Part shown: positions 4,665-59,535 of the stretch, piece by piece
Position numbering within the stretch: the stretch's first letter is position 1
Layout: each line of letters begins with the position of its first letter
Source of the DNA: Patescibacteria group bacterium
GTDB lineage: Bacteria > Patescibacteriota > Patescibacteriia > SG8-24
Direction of reading: 5' to 3'
NCBI GenBank assembly: GCA_041667185.1
Contig: JBAYFM010000005.1
Coordinates: forward strand, 9,285 to 73,284
Length of the DNA stretch: 64,000 nucleotides
Notes under the pieces: generated by a model
The model's database searches: none
The model's input: the letters and a program-made list of their open reading frames with translations, nothing else
Told to the model about the DNA's origin: nothing
Position numbers and translations under genes: made by a program

Positions 4665-4687
4665 ATGTATATTATATCATCTGTGGA

Positions 4688-4880
4688 CGGGTGGAGTTAG
4701 GGAGAGGTGGAGAGTGCTGAAGTGCGGGAGTGCTGGAGTTTTTATCGGGTCTCCCGCACTCCCCCACTCCTGCACTCTCCCGTTCGTTGAATCGGGGAGA
4801 GACGAAGAGGCGGAGTCAGATAAGCACTCTGACTCCGTCTCTCCCTGACTCCGTCTCTCCCACACTCCCTCACCCCCTCA
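4688..4880. repeat. dispersed composite inverted-repeat element, copy A
   Basis: Module 1 has GGAGTGCTG/GGAGTGCGGGAG arms around a TTTTTATCGGGTCTCCC core. Module 2 has GAGACGGAGTCAG arms. Same family as copies at 33.5, 35.0, 40.9, 42.8, 52.7 and 53.7 kb. Confidence 0.65.
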
Positions 4881-41007: not shown

Positions 41008-42546
41008 TCAGACGCATTCACGGAACGCGTCTTCTTCGGGCAGATATTCCATCAGATCTATAGAGAACTCTTCACCACGATGTTTGACGAGTCCGTAGGT
41101 CAGCCGCTGGATGGACTCGACGCTGAGCCTCACCGCGAAGATCCGGATGAATCCGGAGATCAGGGCGAAGACCAGCATGATGGCGATCGGCGTCTTCAGA
41201 TCGGCCAAACCGTACTCCCAGATGCGCCAGCCCTCTTTCGGAAAGCTAGTGAACAGGAAAACGGTCATGGCTCCGACGAGCGCCGCCCAACCGGACATCT
41301 TGGTGATCTGTCGGGCGAGCCGCAATTCGCCGGTCTGGACGAAATGCAGGAGCACACGCACCGGCAATTCGAAACAGCGCAACCGCCGCCACTTGAGTTC
41401 GATCAGCGGCTCGACCAATCGGTACATGAGCGTCCAGGAGCCAGTGTTCACGTAAGTGCCGTCCGGATCGGAGGTGCGGCGCCACTCATGAGTATGACCC
41501 ATGATGATGGCTTTCGCTCCCCGCTCCTGACGCAGACGTTTCGCGTACTCGTCGATGCGACAAGCCGTGAAGGTCTCCAGCACGATGCGCAAAGTATTGC
41601 GGATGCTGGACTTGCGCCGGATGTCCCAAAAGGCGAACAATGCGTTGAACACGAAGCTCCACATGAGCACCGCGCCCGCGTAGAACGTCCAACCCCAGCG
41701 ATGCAGAGCCGCGTTCTTCCACAAGCCGCGATAGTTCAGGAGCCGACCGATCAGCGGATTCTTCTGCTTCAGGCTGATCATGGGACCGCACGCCAGATAA
41801 GAACCGTAAGGCTGGTTCAGGATCGGACGCTCGATCGGCACGCCGAAACGCTTCGTCAGGATCACCGCTTCCGGATCGACCCGATTCTGAGCCTCGGCGT
41901 TCATGCCGTGGTAATAAAGCACGCCGCGATGCAGATCCATGAACTCTGAACTGTGATCGATGAAGCGGATGCGGCTCGCGGCTTCGGCGTCGGTTCCGGC
42001 GATGCGCGCCCGGACCAGTTCCTGGACCTTTTTCCAGACCAGGATCAGGTCGTGGTTGCCGGCGAAAATGTCCAGGCGACAATTGGGCCGGCGCACGAAC
42101 CGGAACAGCGCGTCGAAGAAATCCGCGTGACCATCGATGATCTTGCTCATCTGCAGGACGCCGGTCTCTTCGTACGGCGGAACGGAGAAATGTCCGTTGA
42201 TCGAGACCGCGAGCGGATCGAACATGTCGCCCAGAAGCCGCAAGCGCAGCAGCGGGGCGGAACCATGAAGCGAGACCGCCTTGTCCAGGAACCGCACGAA
42301 CACGCGATCATCCGGGAAATCCTCGAGCGGATTCAGCGGACTGATCTTGGTCGGGACGTCGTACTCGAACAGACTTGCGCACCAGCGCCAGACCCGGCGC
42401 AGGAGCGACGGTCGGGAGCGCACGCGCGCCGCCAGACCCTCGGACATGTGCAGGTCGCTGACCACATAAATCACCTCATCGACTGCGGCCTTTCCGGTGT
42501 CACCGGAAGGCTGGTTGTTGGCAACCACTACTTCCGATGTCTCCAT
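41008..42546 (-). CDS. calcineurin-like metallophosphoesterase with C-terminal membrane region
   Basis: VVSDLHM, GDMFD, GNHD and MGHTHE metallophosphatase motifs. Three hydrophobic helices near the C-terminus. Confidence 0.7.
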   Translation of the reverse strand: METSEVVVANNQPSGDTGKAAVDEVIYVVSDLHMSEGLAARVRSRPSLLRRVWRWCASLFEYDVPTKISPLNPLEDFPDDRVFVRFLDKAVSLHGSAPLLRLRLLGDMFDPLAVSINGHFSVPPYEETGVLQMSKIIDGHADFFDALFRFVRRPNCRLDIFAGNHDLILVWKKVQELVRARIAGTDAEAASRIRFIDHSSEFMDLHRGVLYYHGMNAEAQNRVDPEAVILTKRFGVPIERPILNQPYGSYLACGPMISLKQKNPLIGRLLNYRGLWKNAALHRWGWTFYAGAVLMWSFVFNALFAFWDIRRKSSIRNTLRIVLETFTACRIDEYAKRLRQERGAKAIIMGHTHEWRRTSDPDGTYVNTGSWTLMYRLVEPLIELKWRRLRCFELPVRVLLHFVQTGELRLARQITKMSGWAALVGAMTVFLFTSFPKEGWRIWEYGLADLKTPIAIMLVFALISGFIRIFAVRLSVESIQRLTYGLVKHRGEEFSIDLMEYLPEEDAFRECV

Positions 42547-42653
42547 GAAAGCCTCCTTGTTTTTGGATTTTTAAGGAACTTTTAGGCGGAAAAGGGCCGA
42601 TTTACCCCTTACCGCAACATACTATTTAAGCACAAAATAGGCCGTTTGTCAAT

Positions 42654-43036
42654 GAGGGGAGTGCGGGAGAGACGGAGTTGGGAAGAGACGGAGTCAGGGA
42701 GTGCTGGAGTGCGGGAGAAATGGAGTTATCAAAACTCCCCCACTCCTCCACTCCCGCACTCTCCCATTCATTGGATCAGAGAGATGCGGAGAGACGGAGA
42801 TACGGAGTGCTGGAGTACTGAAGTGCTGGAGAGACGGAGTCACGTCGCTCGCGAACGACGTGGCGGAGTGCTGGAGTACTGGAGTTCTGGAGAGACGGAG
42901 TATCAAAACTCCCCCACTCCTCCACTCCCGCACTCTCCCGTTCAGTGGATCAGAGAGATGCGGAGATACGGAGTACTGGAGTACTGAGATGCTGGAGAGA
43001 CGGAGTCACGTCGCTCGCGAACGACGTGACGGGGTT
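42654..43036. repeat. dispersed composite inverted-repeat element, copy E (two tandem ~175-bp units)
   Basis: Each unit has module-1 arms around an ATCAAAACTCCCCCACTCC core, module 2, and palindrome GTCACGTCGCTCGCGAACGACGTG(A/G)C. Confidence 0.7.
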
Positions 43037-49720: not shown

Positions 49721-52096
49721 TCAAGCCGCTTTCTGGCCCGTATCGCGGTAAGCCTCGTCCATCCGGCCGCGCGTCGAGATCAGCAGTTCCCGCTCCCGGT
49801 TGGCCTGCTCCAGACGCGCCGCCAAATTGATGATCTTGGCGTCTTTGGCGCTCGATTCCTGTCTGACCGACCCGAGTTCCTGCTCCAGATCGCGGATCTT
49901 GGCGTGGACCTCGATCATCCGGTCGACCAGTTCGCGCTTGTTGTCCCAGACGTTATGCGCCGTTTCCGCCTGCCGGTCGACGTAGGCGCGGATCTCAGAT
50001 TCGAGATCCTCGAAACTCCGGCCGCTCTCCACCCAGGCGTCCAACTTGTCCTTGCCGCCCTGTTCGGCGAAGATCGCTTTCTTGGAAAAATCCGTCCGGG
50101 CATCGACCTGGCTCTTGAAAAGAGCATCGGCCTGATAAGCCGGATCGCGCCGCTCGCCGATCAGCAGCTTGAACCGCGAGACCGCTTTCTCCTGTTCGAT
50201 GTCCATGTCGGCGATCTTGGTCATGAGATCGGCTTTGACGTTCCACAAGCGTTCCGGATCATCCTCGAGCTCGGCCTTATCCAACCGGCCGGCGGTCGCC
50301 AGATCCTCGAAAACCTGTTCCATGAACGCCGTGTCGCAGCTGCCGGTATTGAAGTTGAGTTTGGTCGGGGCGTACTCGGGCTGGGAACGCGGCCCGCGCG
50401 GCACCCGTCCCTTGGCATCGCGCAGCTCGGCGATCTTCTTCATGACCTTGGCGACCTCATCCATGCCCCCGTCGATCTGCAGGGTGTATTCGTCGCCGCC
50501 ATACCGGAACGCGCGCCCTTCGACGCCGGCCTCCTCGATCGCCTGCTCCATGATCTGCGCGGCCAGCCGCGTGGCGGCGTCGCCGATCTCCGTGCCGCCT
50601 TTCTGATCGAAATACTTGAGGAAGGCCATGTCCACGAAAACGACCGAGACGTCCTTGCCCTCCTTGAGCGCCTGGCCCAAATTTTCATAATGCACGCCGC
50701 GATCCTGGAGCCCGGTGCTCGCGTCGCTCTTGGTCCGTTCGACTTCGTATTCCAACCGGAGCAATTCCGCTTCTTTGCCTTCGCCGGCGGCGTCAGCCGA
50801 CTCCTTGAGTTCGGCCAACCGGCGCAGACCTTTCAGGTCGCCGCCCTCCGGGATCTTCGCGATGCGCTGCTTCTCGCCGGTCTCGTCTTCGCCGGCCTCC
50901 TCGAATTTCGGCCGGCCATCGGCGCGGGCCTTCAACCGGCGCTGGATGATCTCCTGCTCGACTTTGTTCACCCGCCGCGCTTCGAAGATCCGGATGTTGG
51001 CGGCTTCTTCGGCCAGATCCCTAGTCCGCTCCGGGGATAATTTCAGAATGCTCTCGACCGTCACAGCGCCGGCGGGATCCTCCTTCAGGCCCTCGACGTT
51101 GCTGAGGCCTTTTTTCAGATAATTCTCGAAGATCTTGGCGGCGTGCTCGACGCCCTGTTCCGCCGCGGCCGTCTGGAGACGCTGAATGCGGCCGGCAAAC
51201 TTGGCCTTTTCCAGGGAATGGTTCGCCATGTTCTTCACGAGATCCACCAGCTCGCGCGCCGCGTCCTCGCCGGCATCGAGGCGTTCGGATCCGGCGGCCA
51301 GCTGCGATTCGTTGAGCAGCCCGACCGCGTCCTTGAAATTCAGCCCGACCGCGGCGACCGGAGCCGCTTCGGCGACGCCCTCCACCCGCGGCTTGGCGGC
51401 GTTGACCTCGGCCATGATCTCCTGGAAATCCTGCTCGTCGATGTCGCTGAAATCGACCATGAACTCGTTGGCGTCGTAGCGCAGGAGCGTGTAATCGGCC
51501 TGGTGATCCGGCTTGTCGCGCAAACGGTCCCGCACGATCCTCTCGATCGTCCGCGCGGTCTCGGTGAGCGCCGCGTCGCCGGCCGCGTGGCCGCCGCCTT
51601 CCTTATTGAACCGGTCGAGCTCGCCCATGTTGACGACCAGCAACCGGCGCCGCTCCTGGCTCGCGTCCAGCGCGAACTCGCCGTTCTCGCGCTGTTCGAT
51701 CGCGGCCCGTTCCTGGCCTTCCGCGCGCTTGAACAGATCCTGCGTCTCGCGGCCGAATCGCTTGAACTTGAAAGCGCCCGAAGCGTCGCGCTCGGCGTTG
51801 AACAGTTCCAGTTTTTTCTCGCTGATCGAGGCGGCAAGCGCGGCGTCCGCGAGCTCCAGGCGCTTTTCTTCGAGCGCTTCCGCGAGCCCGGCTTCGGCGC
51901 CGTGGCCGACCTGCGACTGATCGATCCGGGACAACTCGTCGGTCAGGGACCGCTTCTTGTCCTGCGAGCCGGCCAGGCCGGCTTCCAGCTTCAACTTCTC
52001 CTGGTAGCCGGTCAGGCCGCCGAACTTGGCAATCTCCGACTCCTCTTCGGCCGAAAGGGCCTCGCGCTTATTTTCCAGCTTGGGATCTGGCGACAT
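49721..52096 (-). CDS. large coiled-coil protein with two GGDEF-like (nucleotidyl cyclase palm) domains, the first degenerate
   Basis: Domain 1 is VVNMGELDRFNKEGGGHAAGDAAL...RYDANEF (GGDEF changed to DANEF). Domain 2 is VFVDMAFLKYFDQKGGTEIGDAATRL...RYGGDEY. Confidence 0.65.
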   Translation of the reverse strand: MSPDPKLENKREALSAEEESEIAKFGGLTGYQEKLKLEAGLAGSQDKKRSLTDELSRIDQSQVGHGAEAGLAEALEEKRLELADAALAASISEKKLELFNAERDASGAFKFKRFGRETQDLFKRAEGQERAAIEQRENGEFALDASQERRRLLVVNMGELDRFNKEGGGHAAGDAALTETARTIERIVRDRLRDKPDHQADYTLLRYDANEFMVDFSDIDEQDFQEIMAEVNAAKPRVEGVAEAAPVAAVGLNFKDAVGLLNESQLAAGSERLDAGEDAARELVDLVKNMANHSLEKAKFAGRIQRLQTAAAEQGVEHAAKIFENYLKKGLSNVEGLKEDPAGAVTVESILKLSPERTRDLAEEAANIRIFEARRVNKVEQEIIQRRLKARADGRPKFEEAGEDETGEKQRIAKIPEGGDLKGLRRLAELKESADAAGEGKEAELLRLEYEVERTKSDASTGLQDRGVHYENLGQALKEGKDVSVVFVDMAFLKYFDQKGGTEIGDAATRLAAQIMEQAIEEAGVEGRAFRYGGDEYTLQIDGGMDEVAKVMKKIAELRDAKGRVPRGPRSQPEYAPTKLNFNTGSCDTAFMEQVFEDLATAGRLDKAELEDDPERLWNVKADLMTKIADMDIEQEKAVSRFKLLIGERRDPAYQADALFKSQVDARTDFSKKAIFAEQGGKDKLDAWVESGRSFEDLESEIRAYVDRQAETAHNVWDNKRELVDRMIEVHAKIRDLEQELGSVRQESSAKDAKIINLAARLEQANRERELLISTRGRMDEAYRDTGQKAA

Positions 52097-52197: not shown

Positions 52198-52488
52198 TCA
52201 GAGAGGGTCGCTCAGCATCTGCTTGAGTCTGGCGAGAACCATTTTGCGCCGGCCGCCTAGTATCGGCCGAAGCCTTTCGACCAGCTGGCTGACCTCGTCA
52301 TCGGAAAGATGATCGATGTCGGCGTGGCTGAGCGGTTCTTGGCGCGGCAGGATCTCGCGCACGAGTCGAAGCGAATCGTCGAAATTGCTCGAGTGATCCG
52401 GATGATAGAGCATCCGGAGGAGTTCCTGACGCGCTGTCAGCTCCGGAACCTGATCGGTCGTTGATCGCGGATGTCGAGAAGCGCACAT
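52198..52488 (-). CDS. small hypothetical protein
   Basis: 96 aa. No motif. Could start at an internal Met. Confidence 0.35.
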   Translation of the reverse strand: MCASRHPRSTTDQVPELTARQELLRMLYHPDHSSNFDDSLRLVREILPRQEPLSHADIDHLSDDEVSQLVERLRPILGGRRKMVLARLKQMLSDPL

Positions 52489-52597
52489 GGTCTGCCGCCT
52501 TTCTGGGCTTCGTGGCCTGAGATTGCGTAAGGTCCGACTCCGGCGAGGATCGCCAGAGAACCAAAAAAGCTAGCAAAAAATTTCAGTGTTGTCAAGG

Positions 52598-52836
52598 GGG
52601 GTGAGGATGCAGAAGTGCTGGAGTGCGGGAGTTCGGAAGTGCGGGAGTACAGGAGTTTTTGTCGGGTCTCCCCGACTCCAGAACTTCAGTACTCCAGGAC
52701 AGGTGCCTGACACCGAAGGACTCAGGAGTGCGGGAGTTCGGAAGTGCTGAAGTGCTGGAGTTCGTGTCTGGTCTAACTGACTCCAGCTCTCCAGCACTCC
52801 AGAACTTCAGAACTTCAGATTCCCGTTCATAAAGAA
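52598..52836. repeat. dispersed composite inverted-repeat element, copy F
   Basis: GGAGTGCGGGAGTTCGGAAGTGCGGGAG...GGAGTTTTTGTCGGGTCTCCCCGACTCC core ... CCCGTTCATAAAGAAAAGCGCC terminus. Confidence 0.65.
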
Positions 52837-52886
52837 AAGCGCCGGGCCGCGAGTGTGCGGTCCGACGCTGAAGTGTAACGAGAACG

Positions 52887-53633
52887 TCAGATTTCCGAAC
52901 TGGTTTGATCTTGCTTGTCTTTGGCTATGAGCCAGCGGCCAAGATGCCGCCAGATGTCGAGGCGTGTCAACAACATGACCAATCCGTAGACCAGACCGAA
53001 GCCCAAACCAAGGACCAGGACGTAGACCAGACTGTAAACCAGACCATAGACTAGACCTAAGCCCAAACCGAGGACTAGGCCGGGGACCAGACCGAAGCCC
53101 AAACCAAGGACTAGGCCGGGGACCAGGACGTAGACCAGGCCATAGACCAGACCATAGACCAGACTGTAGACCAAGCCGTAGACCAGACCGAGGACCAATC
53201 CGTAGACCAGACCGAAGCCCAAACCAAGGACTAGGCCGGGGACCAGGACGTAGACCAGGCCGTAGACCAGGCCAGGGACCAGACCGATGATCAGACCAAC
53301 GATCAAGGCACTTTGAAGATCATCCTCAATGCTTGATCGAATGGTTACAACCAGCACGATGAGAGCGGCCAAGATAGCTGCCGCTGGCACGTCCCACCAG
53401 CGGGAGACAGCGAAAGGCAACTCTAGCGTCCAGTTTTCTGCTATTGGAATGATGGCTGTCGAGGGCACCGAACCGGTGCACAGGTACCAGACCGTCCAGA
53501 AAGCGGCAGTCAGACTCGCGGCCCGAAGGGCCCATTTGAAGAAAATCCGAGCCAGTTTTCTCTTTGGAATCATTTGACGCTCCTTTGTCGTTTGTGAAGG
53601 TTCAAGATCCGCACGCAAGATGCGGGCCACCAT
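52887..53633 (-). CDS. membrane protein made of ~25 tandem GLVY/GLVP/GLGF tetrapeptide repeats
   Basis: Two N-terminal TM helices, then (GLV[YP]GLVxGLG[FL])n for ~110 aa, then a short charged tail. The internal MIPKRK is an alternative start. Confidence 0.6.
   Translation of the reverse strand: MVARILRADLEPSQTTKERQMIPKRKLARIFFKWALRAASLTAAFWTVWYLCTGSVPSTAIIPIAENWTLELPFAVSRWWDVPAAAILAALIVLVVTIRSSIEDDLQSALIVGLIIGLVPGLVYGLVYVLVPGLVLGLGFGLVYGLVLGLVYGLVYSLVYGLVYGLVYVLVPGLVLGLGFGLVPGLVLGLGLGLVYGLVYSLVYVLVLGLGFGLVYGLVMLLTRLDIWRHLGRWLIAKDKQDQTSSEI
52975..53290. repeat. tandem 12-nt coding repeat (GTAGACCAGACC variants) with ~120-nt higher-order units
   Basis: Direct inspection. The unit GACCGAAGCCCAAACCAAGGACTAGGCCGGGGACCAG recurs three times. 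Confidence 0.6.
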
Positions 53634-53667
53634 TTATTATCATTACAATGCTGTTTGGTCAATTATC

Positions 53668-53805
53668 GGAGTACGGGAGTGCTGAAGTACTGGAGGACTG
53701 AAGTGCTGAAGTGCTGGAGTGCTGGAGTCGGGGAGACCAGACAAAAACTCCTGTACTCCCTCACTCCAGTACTCCCCCACTCCCGCACTCTCCCGTTCAT
53801 AAAAA
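53668..53805. repeat. dispersed composite inverted-repeat element, copy G (inverted relative to F)
   Basis: GGAGTCGGGGAGACCAGACAAAAACTCC is the reverse complement of the F core. The terminus CCCGTTCATAAAAAAGCGCC overlaps the murG stop codon. Confidence 0.65.
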
Positions 53806-54891
53806 AGCGCCAGACCGCCGACGCAGAAGTTTCAGGATGAGATCGGCCAGCTTGGCGGCCGCGGCGGGATCATTCAGCCGAGCCAGGCTCTGGCCGATGG
53901 AGGCCAGCCGCTCCCGGCTGCGCAAAAGCATCAGGATCTGGGCGGCGAAACCATCCGGACCGACCTGGCGTTCATCAACGACCGGCACACCGGCCTCGCG
54001 CCCGTAAAAAGCCGCGTTGTCTTCCTGATGCGAAGCCGGCATCGGCACGATGATCGTCGGTTTGCCGAGCGCGGCCAGCTCCGTGAGCGCGCCCATGCCG
54101 GCGCGCGTGACCACGAGATCAGCGACCGCGTAAGCATGCCGGATCTCGCCCGTGAGGAACTCGATCTCATGGTAGCGGTCCGCAGCCACTTCGCCGGTCG
54201 CTTTGCCCTTGCCGGTCAGATGAATGATCTGGCAGGCCGGCGTCAGGGCCGGAACGGCCGCGCGGACCAGGCTGTTGAGTCCGGTCGCTCCGGTGCCGCC
54301 GCCGAGGATCAGCACCGTCGGCACGCCGGCAACGAGGCCGAACAAGCGCCGCGCTTCCTCAGCCGACCCGGTGAACAGCTCCGGCCGCACGGGATTGCCG
54401 GTCCAGACCGGATGCTGGCGCGGAAAATCAGCCAGGGACTTCTGCAGAGCCACGGAGACCGAAGCGGCGAACGGCGCGGACAAGCGGTTGGCGAGGCCGG
54501 GGCCGATATCCATCTGATGGATGTGAACCGGGATCCGGCGCAACGCCGCGGCCCAGACGACCGGCACGGCGACGAAGCCGCCGGCGCTCACGACGACGCC
54601 AGCCCGCAACCGGCCCAGCAGGATCCAGGCTTCGCCGAAGCCGCGCAGGATGCGGAACAGATCAAGGAAATTCTCCCCGGACAGGTAGCGGCGGAATTTT
54701 CCGGAACTCACGGCCTGAAATTCCATGCCGGCTTCGCGGACCAGCCGGGACTCAGGACCCGACCCGGTCCCGATCCAGACGAGATCGGTCCGGGGATCGG
54801 CGCGGCGGATGACCGCGGCGACCGCCAGGAGCGGCGTCACCGAACCCAGGGTCCCGCCGCCGGTGAAAATTATCTTCTTGCGATCATTCAT
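53797..54891 (-). CDS. murG: undecaprenyldiphospho-muramoylpentapeptide beta-N-acetylglucosaminyltransferase
   Basis: KIIFTGGGTLGSVTP N-terminus. GT28 architecture. dcw context. Confidence 0.85.
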   Translation of the reverse strand: MNDRKKIIFTGGGTLGSVTPLLAVAAVIRRADPRTDLVWIGTGSGPESRLVREAGMEFQAVSSGKFRRYLSGENFLDLFRILRGFGEAWILLGRLRAGVVVSAGGFVAVPVVWAAALRRIPVHIHQMDIGPGLANRLSAPFAASVSVALQKSLADFPRQHPVWTGNPVRPELFTGSAEEARRLFGLVAGVPTVLILGGGTGATGLNSLVRAAVPALTPACQIIHLTGKGKATGEVAADRYHEIEFLTGEIRHAYAVADLVVTRAGMGALTELAALGKPTIIVPMPASHQEDNAAFYGREAGVPVVDERQVGPDGFAAQILMLLRSRERLASIGQSLARLNDPAAAAKLADLILKLLRRRSGAFL

Positions 54892-56022: not shown

Positions 56023-58467
56023 TTACTGCCGTCGGCTGTTCCGGCGCGAGCGGCGCACCTCGGCCTGGCTGGGACGCCGCGCGGGCGCGACCGCTGGCCG
56101 CTCCAGCGCCGCTTTGAGCACTTCTGACATGTCCGCCGCGAAAACGAAACGGATCTCTTTCCGGACCGCCGCCGGCACATCAACCAGATCTTTCTTGTTG
56201 GCCGCCGGCAGGATCACGGTGCGGATGCCGTAACGATGCGCCGCCAGGACCTTTTCCTTGACGCCGCCGATCTCGAGGACGCGTCCGTGAAGCGTGACTT
56301 CGCCGGTCATCGCGAGACCGGAGCGCACCGGCGCGCCGGTCAGCATCGAGACCAGCGCTGTCGCCATGGCCGCGCCGGCCGAGGGACCATCCTTGGGTAC
56401 GGCGCCGGCGGGCACGTGAATGTGGACATCGGCTTCCTTATCGAACCCGGCCTTGGCTCCCAGGCTAGTGGCCGCCGAGCGCGCGAATGAGAAAGCCGTT
56501 TGGGCGGATTCCTGCATGACCTGTCCCAGATGTCCGGTGAGCGTCAGTTTGCCCTGGCCAGGCACGCGCACAGCCTCGATCTGCAGGACGTCGCCGCCGG
56601 CTTCGGTCCAGGCGAGCCCGGTCACGATCCCCGGACGGCCGGCGGTGCCGTCGGTGGCCGTCGGCGAGAATTTTTCCGGACCGAGCAATTTCGCCAGTTC
56701 AGCGGCTTCGATGATCCGGCCTTTTTTATTGGCCGCCGCGCGACCGCGCTCGGCCAGGCCGCGCGCGATCTTCCGGCAGACCGCGGCGATGGCGCGTTCG
56801 AGCGCGCGCACGCCGGCCTCGCGCGTGTAGCCGCTGATCATCCGGCGCAGCGCTGCGTCGGCGAACCGGCAATCCCTGGCCGCGAGGCCGTTATCCTTGA
56901 GCGTCTTGGGCACGAGATGATCCTTGGCGATCCGCAATTTCTCTTCTTCGGTGTAACCGGGGAACTCGATCACCTCCAGCCGGTCGCGCAGCGCCGGCGG
57001 CACGGTGTCGAGGATGTTGGCCGTGGTGATGAAGAAAGTTTCGGAGAGATCGAACGGGACCTCGAGATAGTGATCGGAAAAAGCGTTGTTCTGTTCGGGA
57101 TCGAGCGCTTCGAGCAGAGCCGCCGAAGGATCGCCGCGGAAATCCGCGCCGATCTTGTCGATCTCGTCGAGCATGAACACCGGATTCCTGGTCTTGGCCG
57201 TGTTGATGCCCTGGATGATGCGGCCGGGCAGCGCGCCGACGTAGGTGCGGCGATGGCCGCGGATCTCCGCTTCGTCGCGGACGCCGCCGAGGCTCAGGCG
57301 CTGGAACTTGCGGCCGAGCGCGCGGGCGATCGACTTGCCGACCGAGGTCTTGCCGGTGCCGGGCGGCCCGGCGAAACACAGGATCGGCCCACGGATCTTG
57401 CCGACCAGTTTCTGCACGGCCAGATATTCGAGGATGCGCTCCTTGACCTTGGCGAGGCCGTAATGATCCTCGTCGAGGATGCGCGCGGCCGCGGCGATGT
57501 CGACCTCGGCCTCGTCGCGCCGGTGCCAGGGCAGGTCGCAGAGCCACTCCAGATAGGTGCGCAGATACGACAACTCTGGACTGAACGACGGCAGCGCGCG
57601 CAAGCGTTCATATTCTTTCAACGCCTTTTCGAGCACCACCGGCGGCAGCCCGGCTTTCTCGATCCGCTCTTTCAGATCCTCGGATTCCGGCCGGTGTCCC
57701 AGATCCTCGAGTTCGTGCTCAATGGTCTTCAGCTGCTCGCGCAAAAAAACCTCGCGCTGCATCTTGTCGAGTTCCTGGCCGGCGTCGGTCTGGATCTTGG
57801 ACGCGATCTGCAGCATCTTGAGCTGCCGCGTGAGCGCGCGAGCCGTCAGATTGAGCTTATTTTCGATGCTGTCAGCTTCGAGCACGGCCTGTTTTTCTCC
57901 GACGCGAAGATCCAGATTGGCGGCGATGAGATCGCCGAGCATCCAGGGATCGGAGACGTTCATGATCACGAGCAGCGTGTCGAAAGGCACGTTCGCGCCC
58001 AGACTCACGGCCTGGCGCACCTGGGAAAGCAGGCTGTACATCAGAGCCTCGACCTGTTCGGTCTTCTTGCCCGACGGCCCCGGCAGCAGGCTGACCTCAG
58101 CCTCGAGATACGCCGCGTTGTCGGTGAACGGACCGATCCTGACGCGCGCGATGCCGTCGACCATGAGCCGCTGGCTGCCGTCGGGCTGCGCCGCCGCCTC
58201 GCGCACTTTCACGAGCGTGCCGACGGCGTAGATATCCTTCGGACCGGCGTCCTCAGCCTCGGAGTCCTTCTGCGCCGCGACCACGAGCAAGCGGCCGCGG
58301 CGAGTCGCCTCGGCCAAGGCCTTGAGCGAACGCGCGCGGCGGACGATGATCGGCAAAGAGACCCGCGGAAAAACGACCGTATCCCTGAGCGCGATGATCG
58401 GCAGCCGCCGGCGCTCCTGGCCCGCGAGCATTTCCTGTTCGCCGCGCTCTTCCGGTTTCAGCGCCAT
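56023..58467 (-). CDS. lon: ATP-dependent Lon protease
   Basis: LON N-domain. GPPGTGKTS Walker A. PKDGPSAGAAMATALVS catalytic Ser-Lys region. Confidence 0.9.
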   Translation of the reverse strand: MALKPEERGEQEMLAGQERRRLPIIALRDTVVFPRVSLPIIVRRARSLKALAEATRRGRLLVVAAQKDSEAEDAGPKDIYAVGTLVKVREAAAQPDGSQRLMVDGIARVRIGPFTDNAAYLEAEVSLLPGPSGKKTEQVEALMYSLLSQVRQAVSLGANVPFDTLLVIMNVSDPWMLGDLIAANLDLRVGEKQAVLEADSIENKLNLTARALTRQLKMLQIASKIQTDAGQELDKMQREVFLREQLKTIEHELEDLGHRPESEDLKERIEKAGLPPVVLEKALKEYERLRALPSFSPELSYLRTYLEWLCDLPWHRRDEAEVDIAAAARILDEDHYGLAKVKERILEYLAVQKLVGKIRGPILCFAGPPGTGKTSVGKSIARALGRKFQRLSLGGVRDEAEIRGHRRTYVGALPGRIIQGINTAKTRNPVFMLDEIDKIGADFRGDPSAALLEALDPEQNNAFSDHYLEVPFDLSETFFITTANILDTVPPALRDRLEVIEFPGYTEEEKLRIAKDHLVPKTLKDNGLAARDCRFADAALRRMISGYTREAGVRALERAIAAVCRKIARGLAERGRAAANKKGRIIEAAELAKLLGPEKFSPTATDGTAGRPGIVTGLAWTEAGGDVLQIEAVRVPGQGKLTLTGHLGQVMQESAQTAFSFARSAATSLGAKAGFDKEADVHIHVPAGAVPKDGPSAGAAMATALVSMLTGAPVRSGLAMTGEVTLHGRVLEIGGVKEKVLAAHRYGIRTVILPAANKKDLVDVPAAVRKEIRFVFAADMSEVLKAALERPAVAPARRPSQAEVRRSRRNSRRQ

Positions 58468-58473
58468 AGCAGG

Positions 58474-59535
58474 CTAGAAGAAACCGTGATCGACCATGGC
58501 AATGACCAGGCCGCTCACGGCCGAGACGCCGGCGATGATCCAGAACCGCATGACCACTTTGGGTTCGGTCCAGCCGATGGCCTCGAAATGATGATGGATG
58601 GGAGTGGAGAGAAAGACTTTCTTGTGGCGGATCTTCTTCGAGATCATCTGGATGATGACGGAGACGGACTCGACCACGAAGACCAGGCCGATGACCGGCA
58701 GGAGCAGCGCTGAATTCGTGAGCATGGCCACGACGCCGAGCGTGATACCGAGCGCCATGGCGCCGGTGTCGCCCATGAAGAAGCGCGCCGGATTGATATT
58801 GAACCATAGGAAAGCCAGCAGGCCGCCGGCGATGACGCCGCAAAAAGTGGCGAGATCGGTCTTGCCCTGCAGGAAAGCGATGGCGCCGAAAGCCGCGTAA
58901 CTCGAAAGCAGCACGCCGCCGGCCAGGCCGTCGAGGCCGTCGGTCTCATTGACCGAGAACGACGTGGCCACGAGCACCAGGATGAAGAACGGGATGTACC
59001 ACCAGCCGATGTTGAAGTCGCCGACGAACGGCACGCGCAGCAGATCCCACTCCAGCTTGTAATAGAACCACCAGGCGCCAACGGCGGCGATGGCGGTGTA
59101 GAGCAGCAGCCGATGCCGCATCCGGAGTCCGCCGCCGTGCGGCCCGATGCGCCGGACGTTATAATAATCGTCCACGAGCCCGACGAGCGCCGAAGCCAGG
59201 AGCGCGCCGACCGGCAGCAGCGTCTGTTCGCGCGAGAAGAAATCCAGCCGCGCCAGCATCGGCGAACCGGTGAGCTGCGCGCCGAAATGGAAGACCAGCA
59301 TGACCGCGCACGTGGTCGCCCAGATCAGGATGCCGCCCATGGTCGGCGTCCCCCGCTTGGCCTCGTGCAACTTGGCGAAAATGGGAGCCGAACCGTCGTC
59401 ACGGATCTGCTTGCCCAGTTTGTATCTGTATAAAAAATGGGTCAGAAGCGGCGTCCAGAGCACGGCGACGATGAATGACAACGAAGACAGCAGGAAGACC
59501 TTGATGACGCTGAAAAGTAGCATAGGGGCGAACAA
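58474..59535 (-). CDS. mraY: phospho-N-acetylmuramoyl-pentapeptide transferase
   Basis: Ten TM segments. GTPTMGG. DDxxN and HHH motifs typical of MraY. Confidence 0.9.
   Translation of the reverse strand: MFAPMLLFSVIKVFLLSSLSFIVAVLWTPLLTHFLYRYKLGKQIRDDGSAPIFAKLHEAKRGTPTMGGILIWATTCAVMLVFHFGAQLTGSPMLARLDFFSREQTLLPVGALLASALVGLVDDYYNVRRIGPHGGGLRMRHRLLLYTAIAAVGAWWFYYKLEWDLLRVPFVGDFNIGWWYIPFFILVLVATSFSVNETDGLDGLAGGVLLSSYAAFGAIAFLQGKTDLATFCGVIAGGLLAFLWFNINPARFFMGDTGAMALGITLGVVAMLTNSALLLPVIGLVFVVESVSVIIQMISKKIRHKKVFLSTPIHHHFEAIGWTEPKVVMRFWIIAGVSAVSGLVIAMVDHGFF

Follow-up and report, generated by a model that had tools for sequence, protein, structure and literature searches.

A putative gene cassette for an extended glycine-zipper membrane protein, bracketed by hairpin repeats and apparently inserted at the 3′ end of murG in a Patescibacteria lineage

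INTRODUCTION

How did a gene whose product carries a long run of Gly-Leu-x-x tetrapeptides come to lie between murG and its downstream neighbor, and what kind of protein does it encode? The question is raised by a 64,000-nucleotide stretch of DNA from a Patescibacteria group bacterium (GenBank assembly GCA_041667185.1, contig JBAYFM010000005.1, positions 9,285 to 73,284 of the forward strand), which will be called the window and to which all coordinates refer unless another contig is named. A preliminary description, made from the letters of the window alone, had singled out positions 52598 to 53805 as the site of a gene for a tandem-repeat membrane protein, bracketed by copies of a dispersed repeat. 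The Patescibacteria, or candidate phyla radiation (CPR), have tiny genomes dominated by genes without an assigned function. In our preferred reading, to which we give a probability of roughly 0.6, the locus represents a self-contained gene cassette that one Patescibacteria (CPR) lineage acquired by insertion between murG and the gene that follows. The product is probably an integral membrane protein, the glycine-zipper array of which is predicted to pack helices tightly and to oligomerize.

RESULTS

An apparent insertion at the 3′ end of murG

Three related contigs lacking the insert were used for comparison. Their MurG proteins are 79% (L032), 65% (L033), and 63% (L035) identical to that of the window, which itself is 100% identical to the public protein P0023. 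All three contigs read ...TCTTGACAA... at the junction, with no gene in between; in L032 and L035, the gene directly after murG is the orthologue of the window's conserved 96-residue gene, with a GGDEF protein encoded next. In each of the three relatives, murG ends with ...TCT TGA, and this TGA lies within TTGACA, the −35 hexamer of the promoter downstream (TCTTGACA). While the MurG proteins of the relatives terminate with ...RRRS, that of the window continues as ...RRRS-GAFL before its TGA, and the window junction reads CGG TCT / GGC GCT TTT TTA TGA ACGGGAG ... CACCCCCC / TTGACAACAC, with slashes marking the borders of the insert. As shown by this comparison, murG lost its ancestral TGA and gained the codons for GAFL together with the TGA of a hairpin-element terminus, the downstream TTGACA being kept. 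Parsimony over the three relatives favors a placement of this putative insertion in the window lineage. The inserted segment (Table 1) coincides with positions 52598 to 53805 of the preliminary description, and the notion put forward there, that inserted DNA provides the stop codon of murG, is borne out by the murG 3′ ends of the three relatives without the insert.

The new end of murG can be traced to two sources. The TGA at 53797 to 53799 lies within a TGAAYGG terminus that is present in six of seven element copies, the seventh having CGAACGG; since this generic terminus is shared by other copies, TGAAYGG is element sequence and supplies the murG stop. The GGCGCTTTTTT stretch encoding G-A-F-L, in contrast, reproduces part of the cassette terminator and is not generic element sequence. 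The earlier assignment of the entire murG end to the repeat terminus was therefore correct for the TGA, but not for the last four codons, which match the 3′ half of the cassette terminator; the 20-mer given for that terminus is a composite of element terminus and terminator tail, with one exact occurrence and one near copy. The same region forms a hybrid terminator-like hairpin, with its left arm GCGTCGG coming from murG itself and its right arm GGCGC and T6 tract from the insert. Its predicted stability is weak (RNAfold, −9.4 kcal/mol; z-score, −1.5), and the alignment between this hairpin and the cassette terminator includes a 12-nt deletion.

The cassette and its flanking hairpins

Read along the minus strand, the insert starts with the junction GGCGCTTTTTTA-TGAACGGGAG, followed by hairpin element H3, the promoter-like site TTGACC-N17-TAATAA, a 60-nt leader, a Shine-Dalgarno (SD) sequence, and the coding sequence (CDS); thereafter come an intrinsic terminator, a second junction (...GGCGCTTTTCTTTA-TGAACGGGAA), the hairpin elements H2 and H1, and CCCCCC. 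With TAATAA as its −10 hexamer, the cassette promoter was missed by a consensus promoter scanner; conservation in the paralogue described below is the reason for still rating the site as promoter-like.

The arms of the hairpins are composed of tandem 8-nt units, e.g., GGAGTGCT or GAAGTGCT. H1 and H3 are inverted copies, 86% complementary over 87 nt, and the loops of H1 and H2 are inverted relative to H3. Note that loop orientation says little, because a flipped loop between inverted arms is, as we infer, the expected outcome of recombination. The junction GGCGCTTTT(CT)TTATGAACGGGA, of approximately 25 nt, occurs as a direct repeat at 53790 to 53818 and 52820 to 52850, which extends to about 55 nt if the weaker similarity of the stem arms is counted. 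The proposed bracketing by dispersed repeats in opposite orientation is thus correct for H1 and H3, but not for the junction. The U-tract of the terminator had been attributed to the dispersed repeat as well; it belongs instead to the gene's own terminator, which in the paralogue is 27 nt away from the hairpin element.

Further element copies are located at 4680 to 4870 and 42650 to 43030 of the window and on the contigs L065, L076, and L001, with GATCCAATGAACGGGAGAGTGCGGGAG as the generic terminus. Overall, the flanking hairpins represent a multicopy, noncoding, palindromic, and intergenic type of sequence with four loci in the window and folding z-scores between −2.7 and −4.9. A metagenome scan with the 17- to 18-nt element terminus yielded at least 114 matches, mostly due to chance; among the matches listed, only L065 is a true copy by its match, and L076 has elements nearby. 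When the hairpins were compared with Rfam, only subthreshold matches to miRNA precursors, i.e., generic hairpins, and no family were obtained. No hairpin elements are present at the locus of another homologue, P0002, and the association of gene and hairpins is therefore considered lineage specific.

A paralogous cassette and the origin of the insert

The best homologue of the encoded protein, P0001 (NCBI MFA6603947, WCT10_03870), shares 50% amino acid identity with it and is encoded on a 927-bp Logan contig (L001) from data set SRR6484324, which also holds part of the window sequence. Identity to the window cassette is 85% upstream of the gene (over the hairpin end, TTGACC promoter, leader, and SD), 82% in the terminator region, and 75 to 81% in the N- and C-terminal coding parts, and L001 ends inside hairpin elements on both sides. 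Judged by these identities, the unit of hairpin, promoter, gene, terminator, and hairpin is duplicated as a block. The accession of P0001 at NCBI differs by 218 from that of the window MurG (MFA6603729), and the two proteins probably belong to one metagenome-assembled genome (MAG). The array of P0001 is shorter and broken by a polar loop (NQLYGQDYD), and the uniform GLVY array of the window is therefore regarded as derived.

The cassette probably arrived through duplication of a paralogous one that shares its promoter, terminator, and flanking hairpins. The likely route would be recombination, either homologous or microhomology-mediated, between the dispersed hairpin or terminator repeats, because no transposase-like, integrase, or recombinase open reading frame (ORF) was found in or beside the insert by a search confined to the locus. 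One possibility is a Campbell-type integration, which would explain the direct-repeat junction.

The product belongs to a large family

The minus-strand ORF from 52887 to 53633 reported in the preliminary description exists, but the ATG at 53633, an upstream in-frame codon, had wrongly been taken as its start. The likely start codon is the ATG at 53573 (MIPKRK...), because AAGGAG is located 6 nt upstream and all homologues align from the Met encoded there; moreover, the upstream ATG is out of frame in the paralogue, and the ENA gene callers also chose a protein of 228 residues. The product accordingly has 228 rather than 248 residues and consists of a transmembrane (TM) helix, a β-hairpin loop, a second TM helix, 27 tetrapeptide units, and a basic tail. 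A tail motif, W-[LMIF]-x-[AGV]-x, occurs in 55 of 158 family members.

A search of 5.8 billion proteins retrieved homologues with E values from 7e-40 to 1e-13. Their N-terminal module reads RWSL..FW..WYL..GSVP....LPFxVSRWWD..PIWS and is followed by G-L-x-x repeats and often by a W..WLLA[RK] tail. When a profile of 85 N-terminal positions was scanned against 1.84 billion representatives, 776 clusters (formed at 50% identity) were detected at an E value of ≤1e-3 and 394 at ≤1e-10. This profile evidence places the protein in a large family, as yet unnamed, with no fewer than 776 clusters, most of them from CPR-labelled MAGs. The domain is nearly always N-terminal, and the median protein length is 188 residues. 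In an alignment of 14 sequences, G34, S57, and W60 are invariant and P37, L52, P53, R58, and D61 nearly so; in an alignment of 88 sequences, P37 is the sole invariant position. The 25 family loci in GTDB genomes are mostly CPR-labelled, the MAG labels including Saccharibacteria, Microgenomates, Staskawiczbacteria, Falkowbacteria, Kazan, Nealsonbacteria, Uhrbacteria, and "Patescibacteria group." Other labels, which may reflect misbinning, are Nanoarchaeia (one) and Gammaproteobacteria (two), and two marginal matches are labelled Planctomycetales and Fastidiosipila. Several genomes carry two family paralogues of different array length.

The protein had been described as lacking a recognized family. 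This is correct insofar as no curated family covers it, whereas the large conserved family refutes its status as an orphan oddity. Specifically, Pfam gave no match for the window protein and only single, sporadic, weak matches for 88 members, among them Gly-zipper_YMGG and Gly-zipper_Omp (E value of about 1e-3) in 2 of the 88; no NCBIfam model matched, and a sequence search of the PDB returned chance-level TM matches and no relative. In the literature searched, neither the family nor the hairpin repeats are described, the work on the GlyZip domain of calcyanin being the nearest.

The Gly-Leu-x-x array

The array had been estimated at approximately 25 tetrapeptides arising from a 12-nt repeat with a higher order of about 120 nt. 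This was confirmed, with the count rising to 27: Tandem Repeats Finder detected a period of 12 with 26 copies and 69% matches (52987 to 53298) and a period of 120 with 2.3 copies and an 84% match. The array DNA also contains a 57-nt exact repeat at a spacing of 120 nt, which is the mark of a recent duplication of 10 units. The 27 units comprise GLVY (10), GLVL (4), GLGF (3), GLVP, VLVP, and SLVY (2 each), and GLII, GLGL, VLVL, and GLVM (1 each). Position 2 is Leu throughout (27/27), encoded by CTG, TTG, and CTA, position 3 is Val in 22 units, position 4 is Tyr in 12, and GLVY is encoded by six DNA versions. With three Leu codons and six versions of GLVY, it is the peptide motif that is kept and not just the DNA, so that the synonymous variation points to selection on the peptide. 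There is no charged residue within the 108 residues of the array, and the mean Kyte-Doolittle hydropathy is 2.0. Position 1 is occupied by Gly in 22 units, Ser in 2, and Val in 3, in agreement with the (G/A/S)xxxGxxxG glycine-zipper motif.

Among 158 family members, the longest run of Gly with period 4 comprises 6 units in the median and 20 at most, compared with the 27 units of the window protein, and in some members the array is reduced to a degenerate hydrophobic region. The family-wide unit, determined from 791 units, is G, L (76%), [V/G/A/I], [F/V/A/L/Y]. Many homologues possess 12-nt DNA arrays of their own, with higher orders of 24, 36, 48, 72, or 120 nt and different consensus units; array expansion must therefore be recurrent and lineage specific. 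As judged from these comparisons, the array clearly expands and contracts on an evolutionary time scale. Its length would drift through unequal recombination or slippage rather than act as an on/off switch, and the window array has grown to its 27 units by 12-nt and 120-nt tandem duplications. Among those we found described, the glycine-zipper arrays of this family are the longest.

Predicted structure and membrane topology

AlphaFold2 was used with the 88-sequence alignment to model the protein. The N-terminal module is predicted with high confidence (predicted local distance difference test [pLDDT], 90 to 97) and features a helix (residues 4 to 33), a β-hairpin (residues 38 to 45 and 48 to 57), and a second helix (residues 58 to 84), the two helices matching the pair of N-terminal TM segments anticipated in the preliminary description. 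The array is modelled as two helices comprising residues 86 to 141 and 146 to 203. Five Lys or Arg residues are located within the first 14 positions. According to the positive-inside rule, positively charged residues mark the cytoplasmic side, which suggests that the N terminus resides in the cytoplasm; this would place the conserved aromatic loop on the outside and let the array begin at the cytoplasmic face. In our preferred reading, the uncharged 108-residue array would lie in the membrane as long, tightly packed α-helices, i.e., as the glycine-zipper helical hairpin of the model, and would probably drive self-association, whereas the specific function would be carried by the conserved N-terminal module.

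Several points weigh against this reading. The confidence of the model in the array is moderate (pLDDT, 54 to 87; predicted template modelling score [pTM], 0.42), and helices of approximately 57 residues are too long for a simple crossing of the bilayer, which leaves room for two, four, or more passes or for an oligomer. The proposed function has no experimentally characterized or annotated relative behind it, and the paralogue was placed in the same MAG by accession proximity. Finally, the junctions, at which no target-site duplication beyond 1 to 2 nt is present, do not discriminate between insertion mechanisms or between a one-step and a two-step history.

Table 1. Coordinates of the features at the murG locus
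Feature	Position	Strand	Remarks
228-residue membrane protein CDS	52887..53573	−	SD AAGGAG at 53580-53585; 228 aa also in ENA gene calling
Conserved N-terminal domain, aa 1-84	53322..53573	−	TM1, β-hairpin loop with GSVP...LPFxVSRWWD, TM2; alignments, profile, AlphaFold2
Tetrapeptide array, aa 93-200, extended glycine zipper, 27 units	52974..53297	−	12-nt repeat, 120-nt higher-order unit
Basic amphipathic C-terminal tail (LLTRLDIWRHLGRWLIAKDKQ...)	52890..52973	−	Also in P0001 and part of the family
Promoter-like site of the cassette: TTGACC (53657-53662), 17 nt, TAATAA (53634-53639)	53634..53662	−	Read from the sequence
Intrinsic terminator of the cassette, 12-bp stem + UUUUCUUUA	52829..52869	−	RNAfold −25.5 kcal/mol, z −4.5; conserved in the paralogue
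Hairpin element H3	53663..53799	.	~8-nt arm units; terminus TGAACGGGAG supplies murG TGA; RNAfold −64.4 kcal/mol, z −4.9
Hairpin element H2	52725..52828	.	RNAfold −48.9 kcal/mol, z −4.4; preceded by ATGAACGGGA junction like H3
Hairpin element H1	52598..52712	.	RNAfold −37.8 kcal/mol, z −2.7
Putative lineage-specific insertion, ~1216 bp	52596..53811	−	Between murG codon TCT and −35 TTGACA of the 96-aa gene; boundary uncertain by 1-2 nt
murG, 364 aa	53797..54891	−	Pfam GT28 N and C domains; last 4 sense codons + stop (53797-53811) from inserted DNA
Hybrid terminator-like hairpin GCGTCGG-CGGT-CTGGCGC + T6 in murG 3′ end	53800..53824	−	Terminator scan
Ancestral promoter of the 96-aa gene: TTGACA, 17 nt, TAGCTT	52567..52595	−	TTGACA-N17-TAnnTT also in L032, L035, L033
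Conserved 96-aa gene	52198..52488	−	Directly after murG in L032 (96 aa) and L035 (91 aa)
murG stop/−35 overlap (TCTTGACA)	L032 1915-1950; L035 4565-4600; L033 4585-4620		Conserved overlap of coding end and promoter

DISCUSSION

Alternative explanations

The vicinity of murG could be of functional significance, with the protein serving as an accessory membrane factor of peptidoglycan synthesis or of polyprenyl-phosphate-linked envelope synthesis together with MurG, FtsW, or MraY-type enzymes. Some of the family loci are in line with this idea: family genes are located antisense between ftsW and murG (L013), behind gltX and a gene for an M23 peptidase, 3 kb downstream of murG (L007), and adjacent to genes for an SLT transglycosylase (L015), a Glycos_transf_4 (MraY/WecA-like) protein (L017), or a CDP-alcohol phosphatidyltransferase (L006). 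With the index locus excluded, 2 of 25 loci are less than 4 kb from murG; the corresponding Poisson p value of about 0.02 is rough, as it assumes genomes of approximately 1 Mb and comes from a small sample and a test chosen after the data had been seen. Most loci, however, have unrelated neighbors, such as uvrC/uvrA and the genes for serine hydroxymethyltransferase, leucyl-tRNA synthetase, NAD synthase, or dnaE, and an all-versus-all search of the neighbors found none that is conserved family-wide. The gene is also absent at murG in the relatives of the window, and there is therefore no inherited linkage. We consider a role as an envelope factor unlikely and the murG/ftsW-type neighborhoods a weak lead for such a hypothesis. 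A bolder version of it would see in the protein a CPR-specific, self-assembling "proteolipid," the super-long zipper of which organizes polyprenyl-phosphate-linked wall intermediates or MurG/FtsW/MraY-like enzymes, with array length tuning the assembly and with transposase-free cassettes spreading via recombination at octamer-periodic hairpins. This is highly speculative and, in our view, improbable; if true, it would mean a new accessory envelope-synthesis factor of ultrasmall bacteria and a new route of gene mobility.

According to the preliminary description, the gene might be a phase-variable or contingency locus, at which frequent changes of array length within populations would create functional variants. 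The DNA-level tandem repeats, including the 57-nt exact repeat, and the very different array lengths among family members and between the two paralogues fit such a locus. In conflict with it, the unit is 12 nt long, in frame, and inside the CDS, which is at odds with a length switch acting via frameshift or promoter spacing; as the unit length is a multiple of three, slippage cannot turn the gene off. Moreover, the copies are not exact (period 12, 69% match), the prediction places the array inside the membrane rather than at the surface, and the window contig, an ENA k141 assembly, and a JGI assembly are base-identical over 9,095 bp, array included. Note that these three assemblies are weak evidence of stability, because they may stem from the same or related samples. 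The break of the Logan contig lies in H3 and not in the array. The contingency idea would also have been contradicted by a family of known function in which the number of repeats is constant; the family that was found has varying repeat counts. A contingency or variable-number locus therefore appears quite unlikely.

The description had also considered a holin-like protein, which would be a toxic pore former carried by a phage or another mobile element. The protein is indeed small and very hydrophobic with a charged C-terminal tail, its gene is located in an inserted segment, and glycine zippers are known from pore formers, e.g., VacA and pinholin. Yet five family members gave no match to PHROGs or PADLOC, no member was found on IMG/VR viral contigs, and no endolysin, integrase, or phage genes are nearby, the neighbors being murG and the conserved 96-residue gene; in addition, the family occurs in ordinary chromosomal contexts of many CPR genomes. 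The phage/holin reading is very improbable, and it and a defense reading are without any support.

Finally, a spurious ORF arising as a by-product of a noncoding DNA repeat, for which one might cite that the 12-nt consensus unit lacks stops in all three minus-strand frames, is effectively refuted by the family-wide, in-frame conservation of the nonrepeat N-terminal domain and C-terminal tail, the presence of SD, promoter-like site, and terminator, and the preservation of the peptide through synonymous codon variation.

Relation to known systems

The preferred reading of an inserted cassette for a glycine-zipper membrane protein combines features that have counterparts elsewhere. In-frame tandem repeats of variable number are known from surface proteins such as the streptococcal alpha C protein and the fungal Als adhesins. 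As in the window gene, the repeats are coding and their number varies between alleles or paralogues; in these proteins, however, they are hydrophilic and exposed at the surface, and their DNA copies are nearly identical, whereas those of the window are imperfect and probably membrane-embedded.

As far as it is described in PMC8890360, which cites Kim et al. 2005 PNAS, the classical transmembrane glycine zipper, (G/A/S)xxxGxxxG, comprises two to three units in one TM helix. The window array resembles it in having Gly at positions i, i+4, and i+8 of hydrophobic helices and in the predicted close helix-helix packing, but extends over 27 consecutive units (108 residues) and does not match the Pfam Gly-zipper models. 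The GlyZip domain of calcyanin (CcyA), a protein of cyanobacteria and Methylococcaceae, contains long period-4 Gly/hydrophobic arrays, for which AlphaFold3 predicts glycine-zipper helical hairpins, with no structure solved so far (PMC8890360; bioRxiv 10.64898/2025.12.07.689555). Set side by side by description, this domain appears as the closest described analogue, and the likeness is architectural. Both arrays have Gly or another small residue and a hydrophobic residue every four positions, far beyond three-unit zippers, and for both, AlphaFold predicts hairpins in which two helices pack tightly; units with Pro occur in both, and neither has a solved structure. In contrast to the window protein, in which a threefold organization is absent, calcyanin has exactly three conserved GlyZip repeats of approximately 50 residues with a central Gly-Pro, together with signatures of polar and aromatic type and with N-terminal domains, CoBaHMA among others, that are unrelated. 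By eye, the window array shows a 40-residue higher-order unit in 2.3 copies and V-P-G instead of G-P. The present family further differs by its 0 to 27 G-L-x-x units, its two-TM N-terminal module, and its occurrence mostly in CPR-labelled MAGs. The biology of calcyanin is intracellular amorphous calcium carbonate biomineralization and, as far as known, is unrelated to this family.

The hairpins share several properties with repetitive extragenic palindromic (REP) sequences, bacterial interspersed mosaic elements (BIMEs), Correia elements, and miniature inverted-repeat transposable elements (MITEs): they are short, noncoding, multicopy, and strongly hairpin-forming, are found in related genomes too, are confined to intergenic DNA near terminators or promoters, and break short-read assemblies. 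They differ in their tandem 8-nt arm units (one relative has 14 perfect AGTGCTGG units) and in having loops in both orientations; neither a terminal duplication nor a transposase or REP-associated tyrosine transposase (RAYT) partner was seen at the locus, and no Rfam family covers them. In combining an extended glycine-zipper membrane protein with a cassette bracketed by REP-like repeats, the locus is a variation on known kinds.

These results do not change a current paradigm. What seemed to be an oddity becomes a defined family with a confidently predicted N-terminal module and, thereby, a target for structural and membrane biology. The locus offers a clean natural example of how inserted DNA can rebuild the 3′ end of murG, an essential gene, and still spare the promoter of the neighbor; of a duplicated gene cassette bracketed by hairpin repeats without a visible recombinase; and of tandem repeats within a coding sequence, the expansion of which is independent in many lineages and under selection on the peptide motif.

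Neighboring genes and minor observations

Two pairs of family paralogues were noted: L009 and L011, with 3 and 20 GxxxG motifs, are located on the same contig (CAZBLV010000010.1), and L005 and L008 occur in one MAG. GLV[YFW]-type arrays without the N-terminal domain of the family are present in the unrelated proteins P0012, P0015, P0016, and P0017 of other organisms, some of which end in an RVGGG.RF.H..IQ..LA motif; such arrays must therefore have arisen more than once.

The hairpin cluster at 42650 to 43030 is composed of two tandem units of approximately 180 nt, which include the perfect palindrome CACGTCGCTCGCGAACGACGTG. Like the copy at 4680 to 4870, it is composite, and both are intergenic. 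On the minus strand, the cluster ends directly upstream of a promoter-like site, TTGACA-N17-TTAAAT, that precedes the gene at 41008 to 42546. On contig L076 (Ga0172379_10001609), at least 14 perfect tandem AGTGCTGG octamers occupy positions 1 to 110 at the contig end, indicating that long arrays of pure octamers can grow from this unit. Positions 630 to 725 hold a hairpin element of their own, with a CACTCTCCCGTTCATTGGA terminus. In the minus-strand RNA of H3, the SD-like motif GGAG is repeated along one arm of each hairpin and CUCC along the other, so that H3, if transcribed after murG, would pair SD-like with anti-SD-like sequences.

Downstream of the insert, the 96-residue protein has no Pfam or NCBIfam match. 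The following gene (49721 to 52096, minus strand) encodes a 791-residue protein with two Pfam GGDEF stretches, the best of which comprises residues 457 to 556 with a GGDEY motif; the upstream stretch contains GGGHAAGD, and long charged regions resemble coiled coils. This GGDEF protein is kept downstream of the 96-residue gene in relatives, and L033 has a 57-residue gene in place of the latter and no GGDEF call. Upstream of murG, a full-length gene for Lon protease (56023 to 58467, minus strand) lies between mraY (58474 to 59535) and ftsW in the window lineage. In L033 and L035, mraY is directly followed by ftsW, with no lon in between, and on this comparison lon looks like a second lineage-specific insertion into the division and cell wall (dcw) cluster.

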